The notes under the pieces: generated by a model
Told to the model about the DNA's origin: nothing
Seen by the model: the letters and a program-made list of their open reading frames with translations, nothing else
Databases searched by the model: none
Source: Planctomycetota bacterium
Lineage (GTDB): Bacteria; Planctomycetota; SZUA-567; H5-PLA8
Reading direction: 5' to 3'
Length of the DNA stretch: 22,095 nt
Assembly (NCBI GenBank): GCA_045863855.1
Contig: BTVV01000103.1
Span: forward strand, 1-22,095
Shown here: positions 5,138 through 18,957 of the stretch, one piece after another
Numbering within the stretch: position 1 is the first letter of the stretch
Layout: each line of letters opens with the position of its first letter
Translations under genes and position numbers: made by a program

Positions 5138-7693
5138 CTACTTCGGCGCCACCACCACCGCGAGGTCCCGCGCGAAAGGCGGAGCTTTCAGCACCAGCGG
5201 TCCGGCCGCTTGCCCGGGATCGGGCGCGGCAACTTCCAGCGCCTCCGGCGCGCGCGCCGTGCCGGCCCACGTCTCGATCCAGGTGACCGTATACGCGCCC
5301 GGTTCCAGCGCGGGGAGGCGCACGGTCAGGTCGTCGATCGCCGGCGGATCGGCTTCGCGCCGCTCCAGTTTCGCCGCCCACGTGCTGCGGCGGTCCTGAA
5401 TCCAAACGCACAGGCCCCGCGCGCCAACCCAGCCGCGCACGCTCACCGCCGCCTGCGCTTCCTGCGCGTTGCTCAACGTCCGCAGCGTCCCGGGATCCTC
5501 CCGCGTCGCAAGGTCCTCGATCGCCGCCGCGAACAGCGCCGGGCCGCGCAGCAGCGGCCACAGCTCGTGCCGTTCGACGTGCCGGTCCCACCACCACAGC
5601 ATCGGCGTACCGGCCAGTCCCGCGGACAGGCCTCCCATCAGCGAATTGTGAAACAGAATGCCGCCGCGGTCGCGCAGGTTCCGCTCGGCCGATCGCGCTT
5701 CGTCGCTCGCGCGCATCAGGTCCACATCCGCGATCCCGCGGTAACCGAATTCCCCCACCAGATACGGCCGCCGCGGCCGTCCGACTTCCCGCGACGCGCG
5801 CGCCCAGGACATCAGCAGCGCCGCTTCGTCGAAGGCCAGATCGTCCCGCGCGTCGGCCGCCTCGGGCACGTACCCGTGCACCTGCACGAAGCTCAGTCCC
5901 GGCGCGTCCTCCAATCCCAGCCACGCGTCGGCAGGCTCCAGCGCCGTGCTCACCGTGACCGGATGCGCATGCACGTCCAGCGCCTCCAGGTGCTGCGCCA
6001 TCGTCCCGCACCAGGCGACCGCCTCGCGCCGGAAGCGCCGCGCACGGTCGGCGTCCACCGGAGGCACGCCGGGATCGTCCGGATCGGCCTTCAACGCCGG
6101 CCACGCTTCGTCGATCTCGTTGAGCAGTTCCCAAGCCCACAGCGAACGGTACGCGCCGTAGCGCGCGGCGAGATAACTCAGCCGCCGCTTGAAGCAGCGG
6201 ACCGCCTCCGTGTCGCTGAAGAACTGCGGCGCAGAAACCAGCGGGCCGCCGTGCTCGCGGAAATACGGATGCTCCTTCGAACTCATCGTCAAGTCGTGGG
6301 CGTTCTCCGCGACCAGGATGATGCGAATGTCGCGCGCTTGCGCGGCCAGGAAGATCTCGTCCAGCGCCTGCGCCGCGTCCGGATCGAAGCGCCCAGCCTG
6401 CGGCCCTTCCAGCGGCAGGCCCCAGTGGCTCAGCCAGACCCGCGTCGCGTTTCCGCCGTGGCGCGCCAGTTCCACGAAGCGCCGCCGCATGCTCGACGAA
6501 TCGCGGGCTCGTTCGGGCCAGGCGAGGTTCAAACCCACCGGCATCCAGACGCGCCCGTCGTCGAAACGAAATACGCGCTCGCCCGGACGCACGCGCACGA
6601 AGCCCCGGCTCGCCGGCGGGCCGGCGCGCAGGGCCTGAGCCGGACCGCGCACCATCCCCGTCGGCGCGACGACCACGATCCGCACGCCGTAGTCGCCCGC
6701 CTTCGGCGGCGCGAACCGAAAGCGGAACTCGCCCTCCGCCGGCGCGTCGGTCGGCGCTTCCCAGTAGAAGCATGGCAGCCGCAACACCGGCGGCACCACG
6801 CCTTCCGCCGCCGGCACCGCCACTTCGGCCATCACCGTCAGTTCGTCGAAGCTGCTCGGATCCAGCCCGTTCGCGTAGACGCGCACCGCGCCCTCCAGAA
6901 AGTCGCCCGCCGGCGTCTGCAGCTTGTCGAGAGCCAGAGGCGAGAGCAGCGGCGCGCGGCCGTCGCGGTCGATCCCCACGAACAGGTCGAAGCCGCCGGG
7001 CTGGTCCACGCGCCGCGGATCGGGGCGCAGCGCTTGGGTCAGCAGCCGCCCGCCGTCGAGCTTGCGCAACATCCACTCCGCCGGCCCCGAGCGCGCCAGG
7101 TCGACCCGCCGATTGGCTTTATCACGAAAGGACAAGGCCCGCGCCGGGAACGGCCGGCCGTTTTCTTCGGGCAAATCGTCGTCGGGATCGGGTACGTCCA
7201 CCGATCCGGTGGAATTGAGCGCGAACAGGCGCAGCTTCCCGGCATCCTTCTCGTCGCGCAGTTCGAGCGCCAGTTCCAAGTTCAAGTCCGCGCGCTCGGG
7301 CGGCGGAGCGCCATCGGCCGCCTCAACCGCGCCGGGCCGCACCAGCAGGTGCAGTCCCTTTTCCAGACGCTGCACGCTCACCAGAGCCGCGGCCGTGCGC
7401 CCTTGGGGCAGCTTCCACTCGAGCGTGCGCAACACCTCCGCGCCTTGGGCCAGCGGAGCCGTCTGCCGCCACCCTTCGCCCGAAAGCGCCACGCCGTCCG
7501 TCGATCGCGCGCGCAACTGCAGCGCCGCGAGCACCCGCGGTCCGTGGCTCAGGATCAGCCGCGCGTCGGGCTCCTGGATGCGGATTTCGAGAGCTTCGAG
7601 GGCGGGCGCGTCCGCGGCCCGCAGAACCGGCGCGCTAGCGGCCAGCAGCACTGCGGCCAGCGCCAGATGCGGGATGCCGCCGCGGTGGATCAG
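5138..7693 (-). CDS. Secreted clan GH-A (GH5-like) glycoside hydrolase with DUF5060-like domain; start uncertain (CTG 7693 or GTG 7651)
   Basis: Signal-like HLALAAVLLAASAPVLRA; FRFRFAPPKAGDY (DUF5060-like); FRFDDGRVWMPVGLN, NATRVWL, WELLNEID (acid/base Glu), LVGEFG (nucleophile). The upstream part of the track ORF (to 8236) overlaps the neighbouring gene and is probably not translated. Confidence 0.75.
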   Translation of the reverse strand: MIHRGGIPHLALAAVLLAASAPVLRAADAPALEALEIRIQEPDARLILSHGPRVLAALQLRARSTDGVALSGEGWRQTAPLAQGAEVLRTLEWKLPQGRTAAALVSVQRLEKGLHLLVRPGAVEAADGAPPPERADLNLELALELRDEKDAGKLRLFALNSTGSVDVPDPDDDLPEENGRPFPARALSFRDKANRRVDLARSGPAEWMLRKLDGGRLLTQALRPDPRRVDQPGGFDLFVGIDRDGRAPLLSPLALDKLQTPAGDFLEGAVRVYANGLDPSSFDELTVMAEVAVPAAEGVVPPVLRLPCFYWEAPTDAPAEGEFRFRFAPPKAGDYGVRIVVVAPTGMVRGPAQALRAGPPASRGFVRVRPGERVFRFDDGRVWMPVGLNLAWPERARDSSSMRRRFVELARHGGNATRVWLSHWGLPLEGPQAGRFDPDAAQALDEIFLAAQARDIRIILVAENAHDLTMSSKEHPYFREHGGPLVSAPQFFSDTEAVRCFKRRLSYLAARYGAYRSLWAWELLNEIDEAWPALKADPDDPGVPPVDADRARRFRREAVAWCGTMAQHLEALDVHAHPVTVSTALEPADAWLGLEDAPGLSFVQVHGYVPEAADARDDLAFDEAALLMSWARASREVGRPRRPYLVGEFGYRGIADVDLMRASDEARSAERNLRDRGGILFHNSLMGGLSAGLAGTPMLWWWDRHVERHELWPLLRGPALFAAAIEDLATREDPGTLRTLSNAQEAQAAVSVRGWVGARGLCVWIQDRRSTWAAKLERREADPPAIDDLTVRLPALEPGAYTVTWIETWAGTARAPEALEVAAPDPGQAAGPLVLKAPPFARDLAVVVAPK

Positions 7694-8694
7694 GGGGTCT
7701 TCCCGGCGGGTGCGCCGCGGGCGGACAGGCGCGGAATGCGGATCTTCTGGGCGTCCACCTTTAACTGGTCGAACTCCCCTTCGGATCGCGTCGAGGGCAC
7801 TTTGAACTCGCCGATGTGCTTCGAACGGATCTCGATCTCGTTCTCGTCGTCGCCGCTTTTGATCAGGAACGGATCGCCCCACCCGTCCACCAGCGCCAAG
7901 TCGCTGCGCAGCCGGGCCAGCGCCTGAACGGTCGCCGGCGTCACCGCCTCCCGGCTCTGCTTTTCCTGCTCGGCCAGCTTTTCCAGTTCCGCCTGATCCG
8001 CCGCGATCTGCTCCAGCAGCCGGGCCTTGAACAACTCCGGAGATACCGGTTCGTCTTCCTCGAACGGCTTCATGCGCCGCGCCGCTGCGTCGTAGCGCGC
8101 CAACCGGTTGTTCGTCTCCATCGCGGCTACGCGCGGATCGAGCGTCTCGACGTTGGAACGCCAATACATCACCCCGCCGATCACGCACGCCGCCACCACC
8201 AGTCCCACGATGCCCAGCACTACCTTCTTGCGCCACTTCTCCCCCGTCTCGTCGACGTGGAGCGCGACGTTCAGATTCATCTTGCCGCCGGCTTTGCGCT
8301 TGGCTTCCTCGCGCGCGTGCGCCTTCTCGGCGCGCTCGGCCAGCTTGTCGAGCCCCTTGACCATTTCAGACGGCTTGATATCGGAAAGGCCCAGCGCTTT
8401 GCGGTGTTCGCCCACCGCGTTGCCGGAAACCGAACGCTGCCGCCCGCTCGAACGCCCCGGCGTGTTGCGCGTGCGGCCGCTGGGGCTCGCCGCGTCGGAA
8501 GGCCGCTTGGGCAGGATCCGCGTTTCGCCCGTGGCTTCGGCGGGCTGGGCCGCGGAGTCGGCCGGCGGCTTGGCGGCAGGCGCGGGCGAAGCCGGTTTTG
8601 GCGCCGGGCCGCGGGCCGAAGAACCCGCCGGTGTAGTTCCCGCCGCGGGCTTGCGCCCCGGCGTCCCCGGATTGCCTTGCGGTGCTGTCGCCAT
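7690..8694 (-). CDS. Hypothetical single-pass membrane protein
   Basis: Pro/Ala-rich N-terminus, one TM (VVLGIVGLVVAACVIGGVMYW) after a basic patch, helical C-domain with DGWGDPF motif; purine-rich SD-like sequence upstream of the ATG. Confidence 0.8.
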   Translation of the reverse strand: MATAPQGNPGTPGRKPAAGTTPAGSSARGPAPKPASPAPAAKPPADSAAQPAEATGETRILPKRPSDAASPSGRTRNTPGRSSGRQRSVSGNAVGEHRKALGLSDIKPSEMVKGLDKLAERAEKAHAREEAKRKAGGKMNLNVALHVDETGEKWRKKVVLGIVGLVVAACVIGGVMYWRSNVETLDPRVAAMETNNRLARYDAAARRMKPFEEDEPVSPELFKARLLEQIAADQAELEKLAEQEKQSREAVTPATVQALARLRSDLALVDGWGDPFLIKSGDDENEIEIRSKHIGEFKVPSTRSEGEFDQLKVDAQKIRIPRLSARGAPAGKTP

Positions 8695-10637: not shown

Positions 10638-11696
10638 ATGAGCGTTCGGCGTATCGCTTTGAAAGTTACCGAACAAGGCGGTTGTCCGCTGTTGCGGACG
10701 GGGGAACGCTGGATTTTCGAGAACGGCCGCTTGGACGCCGCCGACGGCGCCGTCTGCGCGCATGCGGTCTGTTCGGTCTTTCCCACGCTGGAGCGCATGC
10801 TGGAGTCGGGCACGCCGGGCCAAGCCCTGCCGGAAGCCACGCTGCACTGCAACGGAGCCGGTTGCTCCGTGGCCTTTAGGATTCAAGAGAGCATCGGCGC
10901 CGGCGCCGCGCCGCTCACGGCGCTCTCCGGGCGCCAAGGCGCGGCCTCCGGACCGTTTCTCGCGCGCCTCTCGCCGGTGCTCGCCGGAAAGCTCGTCGCC
11001 GCCGCCAAGCCATCCTCGTATGCGGCGGGCGACTCGATCCTCGAAGAAGGCGTCATGGGCGAAGCGCTGCATGTGATCGGCGACGGCGAAGTGGAAGTCG
11101 TGCGCAAGAACCCGCAGACCGGTCAGGAGACGCTTCTCGCGGTGCTGGGCTGGGGCGAATGCTTCGGCGAAATGTCGCTGGTCACCGGCGAGCCCACCTC
11201 GGCCGCCGTCCGCGCGCGCGGCCCCGTCAAAATCCTGGCCCTCTCGCGGAACAAGCTCGAGGATCTGCTTGCCTCCAGCCCCGAACTGAACCGCATCTTC
11301 GCGCACCTGCTGGCCGACCGCCTGCGCGCGCTGAATCTGACCCTCCAGGCCGAACGCGGGCGCGGCATTCGCGGCAAGCTCTCCATGCTCACCCTCGGCG
11401 ATCTGGTCCAAACGCTCCACGCCAGCCGCCGCACCGGCACCCTGACCATCCACAAGAAGGCCGAGGAAGCGCGGGTGTATTTCGTCGGCGGGCAGATCAA
11501 GGCCGCCGAGTTGGGCGAACACGAGAGCGACGAGGCGTTTTACGACCTCTCGCTCTGGCTCGACGGCGACTTCGCCTTCGCCGAGGGGCAGCCCGTATGG
11601 CCCGAAAGCGCCGCCGTCACGCGCGATACCATGGGTCTGCTGATGGAGTCGCTGCGCCGCTTCGACGAAACCCAGCGCATCCCCAAACGCGACTGA
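10638..11696 (+). CDS. Cys-rich N-domain + cyclic-nucleotide-binding domain + DUF4388 (PatA-N-like) protein
   Basis: N-terminal C-P...CAHAVC...HC-x4-C; cNMP fold (YAAGDSILEEG, GEVEV, GECFGEMSL); C-terminal IRGKLSMLTLGDLVQTLHASRRTGTL...WLDGDFAF...TMGLLMESLRRFDE typical of DUF4388. Confidence 0.85.
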   Translation: MSVRRIALKVTEQGGCPLLRTGERWIFENGRLDAADGAVCAHAVCSVFPTLERMLESGTPGQALPEATLHCNGAGCSVAFRIQESIGAGAAPLTALSGRQGAASGPFLARLSPVLAGKLVAAAKPSSYAAGDSILEEGVMGEALHVIGDGEVEVVRKNPQTGQETLLAVLGWGECFGEMSLVTGEPTSAAVRARGPVKILALSRNKLEDLLASSPELNRIFAHLLADRLRALNLTLQAERGRGIRGKLSMLTLGDLVQTLHASRRTGTLTIHKKAEEARVYFVGGQIKAAELGEHESDEAFYDLSLWLDGDFAFAEGQPVWPESAAVTRDTMGLLMESLRRFDETQRIPKRD

Positions 11697-16294: not shown

Positions 16295-16322
16295 CCGTTC
16301 CAGCCTCAGCCCGGAGCTTTTC

Positions 16323-18062
16323 TTAACTCGGATCGGCGATGCGGCCCATAAACAGGATCGCGCCGGACACTTCATCCCGGAGCAGCAACAGGTACGGCTG
16401 ATCGGCGTAGAATTCGGCCGAGATTTCTTCTTCCTTCAGTTCGAATAGGGTCGCGGCGGCCGCGCGGGTGCCCACTTCGTCCATTTCCAGCACGGCTTCG
16501 TGCAATGCGCGGCTTAAAAACAGCTTCCCGTCCGCAACGATGCCCGTGAAATCGGCCCGACCGAGCTTGAACGCGTCGGGCATGCCCAGCACGCCCAGCG
16601 GAGGAATCAGGTCGGCGCGAGCGCGCAGTTTGAGCCGCGGAAGGAGCACGCTGGCCTTTTTCTTCCGCAAGCTCTTCCGCCATGCGTCGAAATCCGCCTG
16701 ATTCAGGCCGGCCTCGACCGCGCCGAGGCCGTGGCGGGCCGCGGGCAGGATGAAATAAGCCGCCACCGTCGCGCCCTTGTAGGGCAACCGCAGAACCTTG
16801 ACCTTCGCGTTCTCGCAGAAGGACACGTCCTCGTGCTTCCACATCATGGGGACCGTGACGCGGTCGCCGGCCTTGCGCTCGAACGCCCGGTCTTCGGTGT
16901 GCTTCTTCTCGAAGGGTTTCGCCCAATCGCCTTTGAAGTAGATGGCATTGACGAGCAGCAGCCGAGTCTCCGCATCGATCTCGCCCTGCCTGAGCATCTC
17001 GGGGATCATGCGCTCGGTCCGTTCGGCGATCCATGCGTTGACGGCCGTGCGCGCGTCCTCCGGTTGCCGGTTGAAGTCCAGCCACTCGGTCGGCGCGCCA
17101 AAATACTGCCGCGTCGCCGCGACATAACGCGGCTCAATCGGCAAGCCCTGCTGCGCCCAGATTCGATTGGCCACGCGCAGCACATACGGCTTGGCCTCGC
17201 CGTCGATGGTGTTCTGCTCGGACAGCAGCGCGGCGTAAGACCCCGCAAGCCGCTCCCCGCCAAAAGGCGCATGCAGCACCTTTCCGATCTGCTCGGCCGT
17301 CGCCCCGCGCGCGCCGGGATGCAGCATGCCCAGCGCCGTGCTGACGCTGTACGGGCTGAAGAAAAGGTTGCCCTCTTGTTGGCGGAACTGCCCGAAGAGG
17401 TCCATCGCGAACGCGTTGCCGGCCCGCGCGAGCGCGTCCTTGTCCGCGGCGTTCAACTTTTCCACCGGAGGCAGCGACGGCTCTTCACCGCGCGTATCGG
17501 CCACCGGCCCGGGGTTCGCGGTCCGTACGTTCGGGTCCGCGCCTTCGCTCCGATTCGAAACGATCAGCGTGCCTAAGGCCATCAGCAGCGCGATCGCAGT
17601 CAGGCTTACCTTCTGCATGGTCGTCCATCCTCCCGTATCGGGCGGCGGGGCCGGAAGCGGCTTACGCGCGCTGTCCAGCAACTCCCGCCAACCCTGTTTT
17701 TGGGAGGCACTCGGCAAAGCGGCCGGCTCGGCGGCTTCGGCGGACGATCCGCCGAAGAGCGCGCCAAGTTGCTCGAACGTAAGGAAGAGACCCAGGACCG
17801 CCAGCCGCCGGCGCAGCGTCTCGAGCCCGCGGTGCGCGCGGGCCTTCGCCGTGCCGACGGGGACGTCGAGCTGCGCGGCCACCTGCGCGTACTCGAGCCC
17901 GCCGAAATAGTGGAGCATCAGCGGCTGGCGCTGTTCGTCGGGCAGGCGGGCCAGTTCGGCCAGCGCGGCATCGCGTTGAGCCTCGTCGGCCGGTTCCTGC
18001 CCTCCGCGTTCCGCGCCGGCACGCTCGTCGCGAGCTTGGGCGCGTTTACGCGAACGCAGCAT
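16323..18062 (-). CDS. ECF sigma region 4 + hydrophobic helix + serpin (downstream part of a sigma-serpin fusion)
   Basis: LARLPDEQRQPLMLHYFGGLEYAQVAAQLDVPVGTAKARAHRG (sigma4); serpin motifs NLFFSPYSVSTALGM, GARGATAEQI, LLLVNAIYFKGDW, VTVPMM, LRLPY, EVGTRAAAAT hinge, FYADQPY, ILFMGRI. Confidence 0.9.
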   Translation of the reverse strand: MLRSRKRAQARDERAGAERGGQEPADEAQRDAALAELARLPDEQRQPLMLHYFGGLEYAQVAAQLDVPVGTAKARAHRGLETLRRRLAVLGLFLTFEQLGALFGGSSAEAAEPAALPSASQKQGWRELLDSARKPLPAPPPDTGGWTTMQKVSLTAIALLMALGTLIVSNRSEGADPNVRTANPGPVADTRGEEPSLPPVEKLNAADKDALARAGNAFAMDLFGQFRQQEGNLFFSPYSVSTALGMLHPGARGATAEQIGKVLHAPFGGERLAGSYAALLSEQNTIDGEAKPYVLRVANRIWAQQGLPIEPRYVAATRQYFGAPTEWLDFNRQPEDARTAVNAWIAERTERMIPEMLRQGEIDAETRLLLVNAIYFKGDWAKPFEKKHTEDRAFERKAGDRVTVPMMWKHEDVSFCENAKVKVLRLPYKGATVAAYFILPAARHGLGAVEAGLNQADFDAWRKSLRKKKASVLLPRLKLRARADLIPPLGVLGMPDAFKLGRADFTGIVADGKLFLSRALHEAVLEMDEVGTRAAAATLFELKEEEISAEFYADQPYLLLLRDEVSGAILFMGRIADPS

Positions 18063-18353
18063 CTACAGCGCCGCGTTGCACGCCAGCTTCAGCAGCCAGC
18101 CGCGGGCGGCCGTGTCGGCCTCCGCTTCCGGCGGTTTGAATTGGCCGGCGTGATCGCGCACGAGCAGCAGCGCCTCCTGGGTCGCATCCTCGGCCAGCCC
18201 CTCGTCGCGCAGGATCTGCCGCGCGACGGCGAAGATCTCGCCGCCGTGCCGCTCGACCAGCACCGTCCACGCCTCGGGGTCGCGCCGCTGCGCGAGCCGC
18301 CGGAGCGCTTCGGCCGTACCGAGCGCGAAAGGGGTTTCCACCGGGTGCCTCAT
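18063..18353 (-). CDS. ECF sigma factor region 2, ending at an in-frame TAG directly followed by the sigma4-serpin ORF
   Basis: RDPEAWTVLVERHGGEIFAVARQILRDEGLAEDATQEALL...RGWLLKLACNAAL*; junction reads CTG TAG ATG CTG CGT. Confidence 0.8.
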   Translation of the reverse strand: MRHPVETPFALGTAEALRRLAQRRDPEAWTVLVERHGGEIFAVARQILRDEGLAEDATQEALLLVRDHAGQFKPPEAEADTAARGWLLKLACNAAL

Positions 18354-18426
18354 CTCGTACCTGACCCAGGAATGCCGCCGAGCCGGAGGGAGTTGCAAAA
18401 ATCCGGATATTTTTCGAACCGGCTCC

Positions 18427-18957
18427 CTACTTTACGACTTCCAGAACCGCCTTAAGGTTGCGCGCGCGCCAGATGAAGCAGAAGTGCTTTTCCCATAGAT
18501 TCGGCCAAAGCGCATAGTGCACCTTGCCCATCAAATCCCAAAGCCCGCTGCCGAAGGTCAGATCCACCTGCCGGGTTTTCATGCAGCGGTCGGTGTAATG
18601 ATGCTTTTTCGACGTATCGAAAAACTCGAAGCTGCGCCGTGCGAAGTGGCGCGTATGCGTCGGATCTTCCCACGAATTGAGGCTCGAAAAATGGGGCGTC
18701 AGCAGTTCGACGCTCGCACCGTGCCGCGAGACGCGGTGAATCTCGTTCATCACGCCGACCAGATCGTTCAGATGCTCCAGCACGTGGCTGCAGACGATCC
18801 GGTCGAAGCGGTTCTCTTCCAGCGGCCAGGGCAGCTTGTTCAGATCGTGGACGATATCCACCTGCGGGCCGGGCAGGATATCGATACCCACCGCGCCGGG
18901 GGTTTTGGAATTTCCGCAGCCGATATCGAGGATGGAGCCTGCCGGAAGCGTGGACAT
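18427..18957 (-). CDS. Class I SAM-dependent methyltransferase
   Basis: ILDIGCG, VGID, DIVHDLNKLPWP, FDRIVCSHVLEHL, EIHRV, DPTH. Confidence 0.9.
   Translation of the reverse strand: MSTLPAGSILDIGCGNSKTPGAVGIDILPGPQVDIVHDLNKLPWPLEENRFDRIVCSHVLEHLNDLVGVMNEIHRVSRHGASVELLTPHFSSLNSWEDPTHTRHFARRSFEFFDTSKKHHYTDRCMKTRQVDLTFGSGLWDLMGKVHYALWPNLWEKHFCFIWRARNLKAVLEVVK

Follow-up and report, generated by a model that had tools for sequence, protein, structure and literature searches.

Organisation of the locus

The window, by which we mean the entire stretch of 22,095 nucleotides that was analysed, carries on its minus strand, between positions 18353 and 16323, a gene in which the parts of an ECF sigma factor, a membrane helix and a serpin all lie in a single frame, and this frame is interrupted by a stop codon. 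The features of the locus, in the order in which they would be transcribed, are as follows:

18369..18396, minus strand: promoter-like motif GCAAC-N17-CATTCC, whose spacer has CGGCGG at its 3' end; the motif ends 15 nt before the ATG at 18353
18063..18353, minus strand: ORF A, the sigma region 2 piece of an ECF sigma factor, from the ATG at 18353 to an in-frame TAG; 97 codons
18063..18065, minus strand: TAG nonsense codon within sigma region 2.4 (NAAL-stop-MLRSRKR); CAG (Gln) in other strains and in most relatives
16323..18062, minus strand: ORF B, comprising sigma-4, linker, transmembrane helix, tether and serpin; 579 aa followed by TAA, with its ATG directly after the TAG
17811..17969, minus strand: sigma region 4, the -35-binding helix-turn-helix (Pfam, ORF B residues 32-84)
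17613..17810, minus strand: conserved juxtamembrane linker of ~65 aa, predicted to be cytoplasmic, with motifs RLAxLGL..., WRxLLxSxRxP and GGxSxMxK
17553..17612, minus strand: predicted single transmembrane helix KVSLTAIALLMALGTLIVSN (hydropathy and the AlphaFold model of a relative)
17421..17552, minus strand: predicted disordered, Pro/Ala-rich periplasmic tether, which in the alignment starts with a conserved [NS]GAD motif
16329..17420, minus strand: complete serpin domain (PF00079, E=5.4e-103, profile 3-370 of 370, ORF B residues 215-578)
16404..16472, minus strand: hinge and reactive-centre loop of the serpin, GTRAAAAT followed by LFELKEEEISAEF

Pfam detects Sigma70_r2 in the open frame 18398..18066 (E=5.5e-7), and both Sigma70_r4_2 (E=4.1e-14, residues 32-83) and Sigma70_r4 (E=4.1e-11) in ORF B (18062..16326). 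Regions 2 and 4 are the only sigma domains that Pfam finds, in the window gene and in its relatives alike; this is the layout of an ECF (group 4) factor, without sigma-3 or sigma-1.1. The NCBIfam ECF models match ORF A in part, all far under their cut-offs. In Foldseek comparisons, a model of the N-terminal part matches the ECF sigma factors SigK, SigW, AlgU and RpoE. ORF A matches residues 1-96 of intact relatives in a gap-free alignment, and in these relatives the sigma factor is a single unbroken chain; in the window this chain is broken by the TAG, which stands between region 2.4 and the sigma-2/sigma-4 linker.

An earlier sequence-only reading of this DNA had proposed that sigma2, sigma4, a linker, a hydrophobic segment and a complete serpin of roughly 370 aa are fused in one reading frame. 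The individual parts were found where that reading placed them, by Pfam on two minus-strand ORFs together with hydropathy, and the serpin is complete to within two residues of its profile. As for their fusion in one frame, the claim holds for the ancestral gene and for the relatives; it fails for the window DNA itself, because of the in-frame TAG at 18065-18063, a nonsense codon absent from other strains that had been overlooked.

A nonsense codon in sigma region 2.4

On the plus strand, position 18065 reads A in a single contig, that of the probable source run (depth ~11); the contigs of three other studies have G there. Contig pieces from two of these three studies, covering 16300-18168 and 17917-18500, differ from the window at this base and nowhere else. 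The stop is also absent from a 90%-identical protein of 672 aa encoded in a genome of the same genus, and in an alignment of nine full-length relatives the corresponding column holds Q in six, with H, N and K in one each. Since the stop is lacking in near-identical strains and most relatives have Gln at this site, the window copy is, judging from these alignments, a very recent, strain-specific nonsense allele (CAG>TAG) of an intact gene for a protein of ~676 aa.

It is conceivable, and in our view quite unlikely, that the TAG is a consensus-level error of sequencing or assembly, so that the gene is intact in the window organism too. A single transition would account for the difference, the probable source run is shallow, and all three of the other runs compared have C at that base of the gene. 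Yet an independent Logan assembly of the probable source run yields a 15-kb contig with the same base; this contig shows no difference from the window over 16300-18500 and lists no minority letter at a 10% threshold, with the proviso that the window assembly and the Logan contig share the same reads and that contigs drop rare variants.

Recoding of TAG as a sense codon was considered and rejected. TAG is an ordinary stop in this genome: it terminates 5 of the 13 neighbouring genes in the window, and none of the 78 tRNAs found in the assembly, which is 94% complete, has a CUA anticodon.

The TAGATG junction raises a further question, namely whether the gene has been split to good purpose, into a sigma-2 polypeptide and a sigma-4/membrane-helix/serpin polypeptide that reassemble as a two-piece sigma factor. 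Two-subunit sigma factors do exist, and the ATG directly adjoins the TAG. This Met, however, is ancestral rather than a new start, as relatives read QMLR here; the stop is missing in near-identical strains, and in none of the other members seen does a split occur here. The ancestral Met and the strain-specific stop therefore give no sign of selection for a split, and we regard a functional one as exceedingly improbable.

If the TAG is a genuine nonsense mutation, then translation in the window strain would end after sigma-2, leaving at best a sigma-2 fragment and a re-initiated fragment with sigma-4, the membrane helix and the serpin; expression of ORF B through re-initiation is conjecture. 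A sigma factor, a membrane helix and an extracytoplasmic domain are joined in one polypeptide across the family, and in the window genome such a one-polypeptide sensor cannot form unless the stop is read through. The sigma-serpin switch is most likely dead in this strain, and much of what follows concerns the intact family.

Linker, membrane helix and tether

Between sigma-4 and the serpin, hydropathy peaks most strongly at a segment with a mean Kyte-Doolittle value of 1.94 over 19 residues. AlphaFold models this segment of the 90%-identical relative as one 22-residue helix (residues 241-262), and 38 of 39 fusions have a comparable segment whose hydropathy reaches 1.8 or more. The peak and the modelled helix together confirm that the hydrophobic stretch noted earlier has the character of a transmembrane segment. 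A weaker hydrophobic stretch follows sigma-4 (hydropathy 1.3-2.0), and we considered whether it might be a second transmembrane helix, which would place the serpin in the cytoplasm. AlphaFold models it with high confidence as short broken helices that do not span a membrane, and in distant members it is far less hydrophobic; a second helix is thus unlikely.

Beyond the transmembrane helix, the tether is predicted to be disordered (pLDDT 32-40 over residues 263-290 of the relative's model), and its length ranges from 21 to 76 aa among the 39 fusions. We propose it as a candidate region for site-1 cleavage. Among the 46 free serpins nearest to the fused domain, 37 have N-termini resembling signal peptides, and this clade of serpins is therefore taken to be exported. 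The best-supported topology, from hydropathy, modelling and these relatives, is N-in/C-out with the serpin predicted to lie outside the cytoplasm.

On the other side of the membrane, the linker is conserved in alignments across the sigma-serpin fusions. No Pfam anti-sigma domain (ZAS, RskA or FecR) is found in it even at E-values up to 10, nor anywhere in the whole ORF at E<=0.1. For the W-R-x-L-L helix of the linker, AlphaFold gives a pLDDT of 95 when the 90%-identical relative is modelled at full length, and of 87-97 in a 275-aa N-terminal model that lacks the serpin (pTM 0.80). We compared the arrangement of sigma-2 and sigma-4 in this serpin-less model with solved structures, using Foldseek and the target-normalised TM-score (TMt). 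Against the anti-sigma-bound complexes SigW-RsiW and CnrH-CnrY the rmsd is 5.9-7.1 with TMt ~0.6, whereas the fit to ECF sigma factors bound to RNA polymerase is far poorer (rmsd 21-28, TMt 0.30-0.41), although AlphaFold tends to give free ECF sigma factors a compact shape anyway. The pLDDT and pTM values suggest that the linker may dock on the sigma domains.

The serpin and its reactive loop

When the AlphaFold model is compared with solved serpins, namely PAI-2, serpinB1, antithrombin, the bacterial chloropin and miropin, TMt ranges from 0.85 to 0.94. The hinge of the window serpin, GTRAAAAT, fits the inhibitory consensus G-T-x-A-A-A-A-T, in which P14 is Thr and the positions P12-P9 hold small residues. 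Counting against the numbering of alpha-1-antitrypsin, P1 of the window serpin is presumably about Glu. The reactive loop is modelled as exposed in the relative, with pLDDT below 50 (residues 627-637).

Most fusions keep a hinge of the inhibitory type, GTEAAAAT. The hinge is strictly canonical in 29 of the 39, and inspection by eye places five more as near-canonical and one as divergent, with four lacking a pattern match; one member (P0121) and one locus (L057) have deviant hinges. By its hinge and its fold match, the domain is predicted to be a serpin of the inhibitory type. The sequence and the length of the loop vary widely between members, and therefore no common protease specificity is evident.

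A family of sigma-serpin fusions in the Planctomycetota

Several searches recovered the same architecture elsewhere. Sigma regions 2 and 4 occur together with a serpin in 9 of 120 listed matches of a protein search, and a sample of 401 Planctomycetota genomes includes 9 with colinear sigma and serpin matches. Purpose-built sigma and serpin HMMs confirmed 11 loci besides that of the window. Fusions make up 38 of the best 150 representative clusters, and all 32 that were newly checked with Pfam carry both domains. On this sequence evidence, the sigma-serpin fusion is a real, conserved protein family of the Planctomycetota. A hidden sigma part was also sought in 20 other long open frames with a serpin at their end, and none of them has one; these are GC-rich read-through of upstream sequence or else have N-termini of no known kind.

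In a quick-search tree of the serpin domain (64 rows), the 18 fused rows cluster: the tree requires 6 changes, compared with 15.8 in shuffles, and none of 500 shuffles was as low. The backbone is weak, and the fusion may have had one origin or several. The nearest relatives of the sigma part carry the same sigma-linker-helix module with other ectodomains, among them STN, HEAT, LRR, WD40 and AhpC/TSA. These relatives, with their variable ectodomains, agree with the earlier statement that planctomycete ECF sigma factors often bear transmembrane helices and C-terminal domains, and by such comparisons the sigma module belongs to a planctomycetal ECF class whose ectodomains appear to be swappable.

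These distributions bear on what the serpin is for. It might act chiefly as an effector, a periplasmic protease inhibitor held at the membrane to protect the envelope, with the fusion coupling its synthesis or turnover to the sigma factor; the serpin would then not be the input of the system. Free serpins, many of them apparently exported, are indeed common in the phylum (153 of the 401 genomes match at E<=1e-20, mostly over the serpin part alone), and the fused domain is the only serpin match in the window genome. Nevertheless, the many unrelated ectodomains carried by the sigma-linker-helix module make this slot look more like a place for sensors than for effectors; no fewer than 38 representative clusters have kept linker and helix along with the serpin; and a sigma factor locked to the membrane would be functionless unless released. 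We thus consider a pure effector role very unlikely.

In the openly searchable literature we found no paper that links serpins to ECF or other sigma factors, and no description of a sigma-serpin fusion, in agreement with the earlier statement that no characterised example is known. Databases name these proteins either 'sigma-70 family' or 'serpin B'.

A promoter-like motif and the gene neighbourhood

A regular expression for G[CGT]AAC-N17/18-C[AC]TT[CT]C finds a match 11-25 nt upstream of the start in six of the eight sigma-serpin genes of the window's family, and the remaining two have variants recognisable by eye (GAAAC-N17-CATCTT and AGAAC-N17-CATTCT). Paralogues that lie in unrelated contexts are among these genes. 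The motif is a candidate ECF-type, autoregulated promoter. The strict motif has three matches in the window genome, of which one is the gene's own promoter, one lies inside a long ORF at 5680, and one falls inside a coding region on another contig. Five relatives together give 21 matches, compared with 10 for a reversed-pattern control, and apart from their own promoters these matches fall mostly in one conserved coding stretch. Strict motif scans of the window genome and of the five relatives thus found no regulon.

Synteny is conserved only within the window's family, where the genes nearby are a small methyltransferase upstream, a xylose-isomerase-like TIM-barrel gene, and a NifU-hemerythrin gene in convergent orientation. 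This context is absent from paralogues and distant members, which have no protease neighbour either, and across the sigma-serpin loci compared there is no conserved neighbouring gene for a protease or for a receptor. The M50 site-2 protease family is present in the window genome, and this family is universal.

Discussion

We lean, with slightly more belief than doubt, towards the following account: in the window, a nonsense mutation has recently interrupted a conserved gene for an ECF sigma factor that acts as a one-component system tethered to the membrane, bears an inhibitory-type serpin as its ectodomain, is released by regulated proteolysis, and takes the serpin-protease reaction as its input. 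In the intact protein of ~676 aa, sigma-2 and sigma-4 would be cytoplasmic, and the conserved juxtamembrane segment of 65 aa would fold against them; this segment and the membrane anchor would jointly keep the sigma factor off RNA polymerase. Beyond the transmembrane helix would follow the disordered tether and then the serpin, in the periplasm. Regulated intramembrane proteolysis would free the sigma factor, through a site-1 cut in the tether or ectodomain followed by a site-2 cut of the RseP type, along the lines of IutY and the ECF48/52/53 groups discussed below. The trigger would be the reaction of the serpin with an active serine protease, in which the loop is cleaved and inserted and the protease is covalently trapped, and the cell would receive a protease signal that is irreversible and based on activity. 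Once released, the sigma factor would probably drive its own promoter, GCAAC-N17-CATTCC, along with a further regulon. We know of no precedent for a serpin whose loop insertion exposes a site-1 cut.

A more specific version of this account makes the serpin the receptor of a trans-envelope switch, in which covalent capture of an active serine protease, whether from prey, from competitors or from the cell's own secretome, leads to cleavage of the tether and release of the sigma factor. We advance it tentatively, as a possibility that may well prove wrong. If it is true, molecules of active protease would be counted irreversibly, one-for-one; the protein would be the first transcription factor with a suicide-substrate inhibitor as its sensor domain; and prokaryotic serpins would have their first defined signalling role.

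The serpin could instead be a guard rather than a bait, inhibiting a site-1 protease of the Prc, CtpA or DegS kind so that the sigma factor stays tethered. The signal would then be a loss of inhibition, through excess protease or through oxidation or polymerisation of the serpin, and not the capture of a foreign protease. The architecture, the topology and the inhibitory hinge apply equally to such a guard; the modelled disorder of the tether beside the serpin makes it look accessible to proteases; no link to a foreign protease and no partner gene was seen at the loci compared; and fused sigma/anti-sigma proteins are known to be released by periplasmic site-1 proteases (PMC8999054). On the other hand, serpins are consumed one-for-one, which would make them poor long-term guards against a housekeeping protease, and the wide variation of the loop among orthologues is unexpected for one conserved endogenous target. 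We judge the guard unlikely.

The tethered, protease-sensing sigma factor that we favour has partial parallels. The closest is IutY of Pseudomonas putida, a sigma/anti-sigma hybrid that is inactive while tethered, is released by Prc and then RseP, and is constitutively active when its extension is truncated (PMC8999054). Like the window family, IutY combines its ECF sigma factor with a membrane-spanning segment and a periplasmic domain in one polypeptide. Its extension, as described there, is an anti-sigma domain of the FecR type and responds to a TonB-dependent receptor and a siderophore, whereas the window family belongs to the phylum Planctomycetota and has a serpin ectodomain, no FecR or other anti-sigma domain detectable by Pfam, and no conserved receptor neighbour. 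Proteolytic control is likewise expected for ECF48, ECF52 and ECF53 of Actinobacteria, for example SCO4117, in which the sigma factor is joined by one or two transmembrane helices and a Pro-rich region to an extracytoplasmic domain (PMC8999054). These groups are there credited with a zinc-finger anti-sigma domain, and SCO4117 with a carbohydrate-binding ectodomain as well; neither was found in the window protein.

Extra C-terminal domains are also reported for other groups, ECF01-Gob among them (PMC5766207), and ECF57 averages 5.3 copies per planctomycetal genome (PMC7826278). The planctomycetal ECF sigma factors with long C-terminal extensions resemble the window family in phylum and in combining a transmembrane helix with large C-terminal domains; the main text of PMC7826278 and one of its supplementary files make no mention of serpins.

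On the side of the serpins, miropin (5ncs) and chloropin (8gxv) have the full serpin fold (TMt 0.87-0.91) and an inhibitory-type hinge. They are stand-alone exported proteins or lipoproteins, whereas the window serpin has, in place of a signal peptide, a membrane anchor that leads into a transcription factor. A comparable logic is found in the RsiV/sigma-V system of Firmicutes, in which the anti-sigma factor is itself the lysozyme receptor: once this hostile host enzyme has bound, the site-1 cut is permitted and an ECF sigma factor is set free. That system differs in that sigma and anti-sigma are separate proteins, the enzyme is bound reversibly and without a covalent link, and the receptor has an unrelated fold.

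The fusion of sensor domains to membrane-tethered ECF sigma factors is a known design that has barely been tested, and most prokaryotic serpins are without an assigned role. The names 'sigma-70 family' and 'serpin B' each hide half of the proteins described here. As the window copy is apparently a recent nonsense allele, the intact allele of its sister strains would be the better starting point for work, and the design could serve as a natural template for engineered protease biosensors. The conserved sigma-serpin family turns activity-based protease sensing across the bacterial envelope into a testable hypothesis: the design recurs in many Planctomycetota, and these bacteria may use it to sense active proteases.

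Layout of the gene

The sequence-only reading had placed a sigma-2 region, a sigma-4 region, a linker, a hydrophobic segment and a complete serpin in one reading frame at 16323..18353. The ORF listing of the window gives two adjoining ORFs in the same frame on the minus strand:

18398..18063, minus strand: ORF A, likely start ATG 18353, reading MRHPVETP
18065-18063, minus strand: TAG stop, the sole separator of ORF A and ORF B; the next codon is ATG
18062..16323, minus strand: ORF B, 579 aa

The Pfam run proposed for both ORFs recovers all three expected domains: Sigma70_r2 in ORF A (5.5e-7), and in ORF B both Sigma70_r4_2 (residues 32-83, 4.1e-14) and a complete Serpin domain, which spans residues 215-578 and covers profile positions 3-370 of 370 (5.4e-103). 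Many ECF sigma models of NCBIfam also match the gene, partially and all below threshold. Hydropathy between sigma-4 and the serpin has its main peak at the hydrophobic segment quoted in the sequence-only reading. All parts therefore lie where they had been placed, but the frame is not open: it is closed by the TAG, which falls inside sigma region 2.4 (WLLKLACNAAL-stop-MLRSRKR).

Age and reality of the stop codon

TAG terminates five of the 13 neighbouring genes in the window, and is thus a normal stop; ARAGORN reports no CUA anticodon among the 78 tRNAs of this 94%-complete genome. In the corresponding column of alignment A1, six of nine full-length relatives have Gln and the remaining three have His, Asn and Lys. 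A same-genus genome encodes an uninterrupted protein of 672 aa, 90% identical, to which we refer as the relative.

We compared Logan contigs of four public runs with the window over 16300-18500. Contigs of X1, the run that is probably the source (depth about 11), show no difference from the window. The runs X2, X3 and X5, from three other studies, have G at plus-strand position 18065, so that the coding strand reads CAG there, and base 18065 is the sole difference from the window in the X2 piece (16300-18168) and the X3 piece (17917-18500). Since these contigs read CAG, with no other difference in the X2 and X3 pieces, and since the relatives are uninterrupted, the comparison identifies the window copy as a recent, strain-specific nonsense allele that arose by a one-base change; the rest of the gene is intact, as was its ancestral state, and the allele is too young to have decayed further. 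Both assemblies were built on the same reads, however, and contigs conceal minority variants, so that the TAG could still be a consensus-level read error in a gene that is intact in the organism, an explanation we consider quite unlikely.

Given the nonsense allele, translation in this genome would end after sigma-2. Because the ATG after the TAG is ancestral, re-initiation there could possibly yield a sigma-4/TM/serpin product; this is conjectural, and such a product would not function as a sigma factor. By its sequence, then, the window copy is most likely a recent null allele. Two database entries, P0009 (556 aa) and P0169 (576 aa), have their first residue within sigma-4 or shortly ahead of it and run on through a TM helix and a serpin; gene calls cut short or additional broken alleles may explain them.

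Conservation of the sigma-serpin fusion

In a word-index search with ORF B, nine proteins of 672-725 aa among the 120 matches listed carry precomputed Pfam assignments to both Sigma70_r2/r4 and Serpin, and the NCBI names of five assign them to a Planctomycetes/Planctomycetota MAG. When the relative is used as query against 401 Planctomycetota genomes, 153 match at E<=1e-20, mostly through the serpin part alone; among the matches listed, besides which there are 64 weaker ones, sigma and serpin are colinear in at least nine of the 401 genomes, this one included. Six of these nine belong to the window's family, one to another family of the same class and two to other families. The sequence-only reading had proposed looking for the architecture in other genomes, and there it is indeed found.

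Purpose-built HMMs for sigma, linker and serpin find a sigma and a serpin part sharing one open frame at 11 loci other than the window's. None of 20 other long serpin-ending open frames has a sigma part. A search of 1.84 billion cluster representatives with a profile built from 17 fusions returns 38 full- or near-full-length fusions in the best 150 matches, below which further fusions may lie. Six of the 38 were previously known, and Pfam finds both domain types in all 32 newly checked. From these searches we conclude that the sigma-serpin fusion is a real, conserved family. Of ten fusions, the source databases name one, from a Planctomycetota MAG, 'sigma-70 family RNA polymerase sigma factor' and call five others 'serpin B'; four are nameless.

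Two or possibly three of the six same-family genomes hold two fusion copies. The family duplicates within genomes, as seen from paralogue pairs in G268 (locus L055, contig 12, 478-2652 and 7646-9904, 5 kb apart) and in G313 and G009, with two copies each. Common among the hits, too, are adjacent pairs of free serpin genes, seen in Planctomycetota genomes at loci L020 and L027, and proteins with two or three tandem serpin domains, which measure 775-1154 aa and match the profile in 2-3 stretches.

Predicted anatomy

AlphaFold2, run on the relative with an 84-row alignment (mean pLDDT 87.8), predicts the following order of parts:

Residues 9-182: sigma helices, high confidence
Residues 189-220: three short linker helices (pLDDT 95 for 211-230)
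Residues 241-262: one TM helix (pLDDT about 76-81)
Residues 263-290: disordered stretch (pLDDT 32-40)
Residues 291-672: serpin, high confidence except the loop 627-637 (below 50)

Of 39 fusions, 38 have a TM-like segment (hydropathy at least 1.8), and the tether measures 21-76 aa across the 39. A weaker second hydrophobic stretch lies right after sigma-4 (hydropathy 1.3-2.0); neither AlphaFold run models it as a membrane span. By a simple hydropathy rule, 37 of the 46 nearest free serpins have signal-peptide-like N-termini, which marks the clade as exported and fits an exported ectodomain.

In Foldseek the serpin model matches inhibitory serpins of solved structure, the bacterial miropin and chloropin among them (target-normalised TM-score, TMt, 0.85-0.94). 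The window's hinge reads GTRAAAAT, and 29 of 39 fusions have a strictly canonical hinge; several more are near-canonical, one clearly deviates and four were missed by the search pattern. Judged by these residues, the hinge is of the inhibitory type. The loop that follows varies greatly in sequence and length among fusions. In the window it is acidic (LFELKEEEISAEF), with a P1 that we take to be Glu, counting as in alpha-1-antitrypsin.

The sigma module and its linker

Residues 1-290 of the relative match 30 proteins, four of which are serpin fusions. The closest non-serpin relatives (40-50% identity, 56-90% coverage) keep the linker and TM helix and bear other C-terminal sequences, and more distant ones carry HEAT, LRR, WD40, AhpC/TSA, DUF1559 or BFN domains. 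Since its relatives bear these other C-terminal domains, the module points to ectodomain swapping on a fixed sigma-linker-TM unit, and on this comparison the serpin takes the place of the interchangeable ectodomain in a planctomycetal sigma-TM-X class. In alignment A5, the closest non-serpin relatives P0122, P0123 and P0124 keep the sigma and linker motifs; one has an STN domain and two are without a Pfam ectodomain. The fused serpins cluster in the serpin-domain tree (6 changes vs 15.8 in shuffles, 0 of 500 as low), a pattern that would be compatible with one fusion event or several.

The linker is conserved across fusions (WRxLLxSxRxP, GGxSxMxK), and no anti-sigma domain in Pfam matches it even at E up to 10. 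A second AlphaFold run, on the N-terminal 275 residues with the serpin left out, models the W-R-x-L-L helix at pLDDT 87-97 (pTM 0.80). Its sigma-2/sigma-4 arrangement superposes at rmsd 5.9-7.1 on SigW-RsiW, CnrH-CnrY, SigG1 and SigJ, which are sigma chains from anti-sigma complexes or ECFs with regulatory extensions, and much more poorly, at rmsd 21-28, on RNA polymerase-bound ECF sigmas. AlphaFold often gives compact models for free ECF sigmas. The confidence of the linker helix without the serpin, together with the better fit to anti-sigma-type chains, weakly suggests a compact, self-inhibited sigma held by its juxtamembrane segment.

Neighbourhood and putative promoter

Within the window's family the neighbours are kept. 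Upstream, on the gene's own strand, lies a small methyltransferase; the NifU-hemerythrin gene is convergent, and a gene for a xylose-isomerase-like TIM barrel is the third neighbour. The contexts of paralogues and of distant members differ, and no conserved protease neighbour is found across family, paralogues and distant members. All eight family genes have the motif G[CGT]AAC-N17/18-C[AC]TT[CT]C, whose spacer includes CGGC[GT]G, directly 5' of the start (six by regex, two variants by eye):

18396-18369, minus strand: promoter-like motif just before the start codon; also at orthologues L052, L053, L055, L056 and L060

ECF promoters typically have an 'AAC' -35 box. Since the motif is kept in unrelated contexts, autoregulation through this conserved putative promoter would fit; genome scans reveal no further targets. 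Some 45 nt farther upstream, L056 and L055:478 have a second box, TGCAAC-N15-CGTCTAA, which is canonical and ECF-like.

Elsewhere in the window, two ORFs overlap on opposite strands (5138-8236, minus, 1032 aa; 5210-7927, plus, 905 aa; 71% GC). Neither has a Pfam match, and GC3 is 0.78 in both and does not discriminate between them; one match to the strict promoter pattern falls within them, at 5680, and the same-genus genome keeps it. A gene with a cyclic-nucleotide-binding domain and DUF4388 (10638-11696, plus) is likewise conserved in that genome. On two contigs of this genome ARAGORN predicts two tRNA-Sec genes with a TCA anticodon, as well as one unusual tRNA to which it assigns an anticodon of four bases. 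This suggests selenocysteine use, and the duplicate tRNA-Sec could reflect strain heterogeneity in the bin.

Proposed mechanism and relation to known systems

The fusion belongs to a known kind, the ECF sigma factor with a fused membrane-spanning sensor extension. Planctomycetal ECFs are reportedly the subject of a study by Jogler et al. in 2012. Full-text literature searches found no relevant paper joining serpins with ECF or sigma factors or with Planctomycetes, and for the transmembrane or domain architecture of prokaryotic serpins gave only irrelevant papers; the main text and one supplementary file of the ECF re-classification paper (PMC7826278) do not contain the word 'serpin'.

As described in PMC8999054, IutY is released by Prc and then RseP, and release by proteolysis is proposed for ECF48/52/53. 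By analogy, the anchored sigma factor of the fusion would be inactive, possibly also clamped by its linker, and would be freed by regulated proteolysis. The IutY/ECF52 type has a recognisable anti-sigma domain, whereas Pfam finds none in the fusion. The input would be the reaction of the serpin with an active serine protease. The serpin might instead guard against the site-1 protease, which we think unlikely, or be a mere effector, which we think very unlikely. With the serpin as sensor, the mechanism is attractive, and the fusion is a real, conserved and apparently undescribed variant of a known design.
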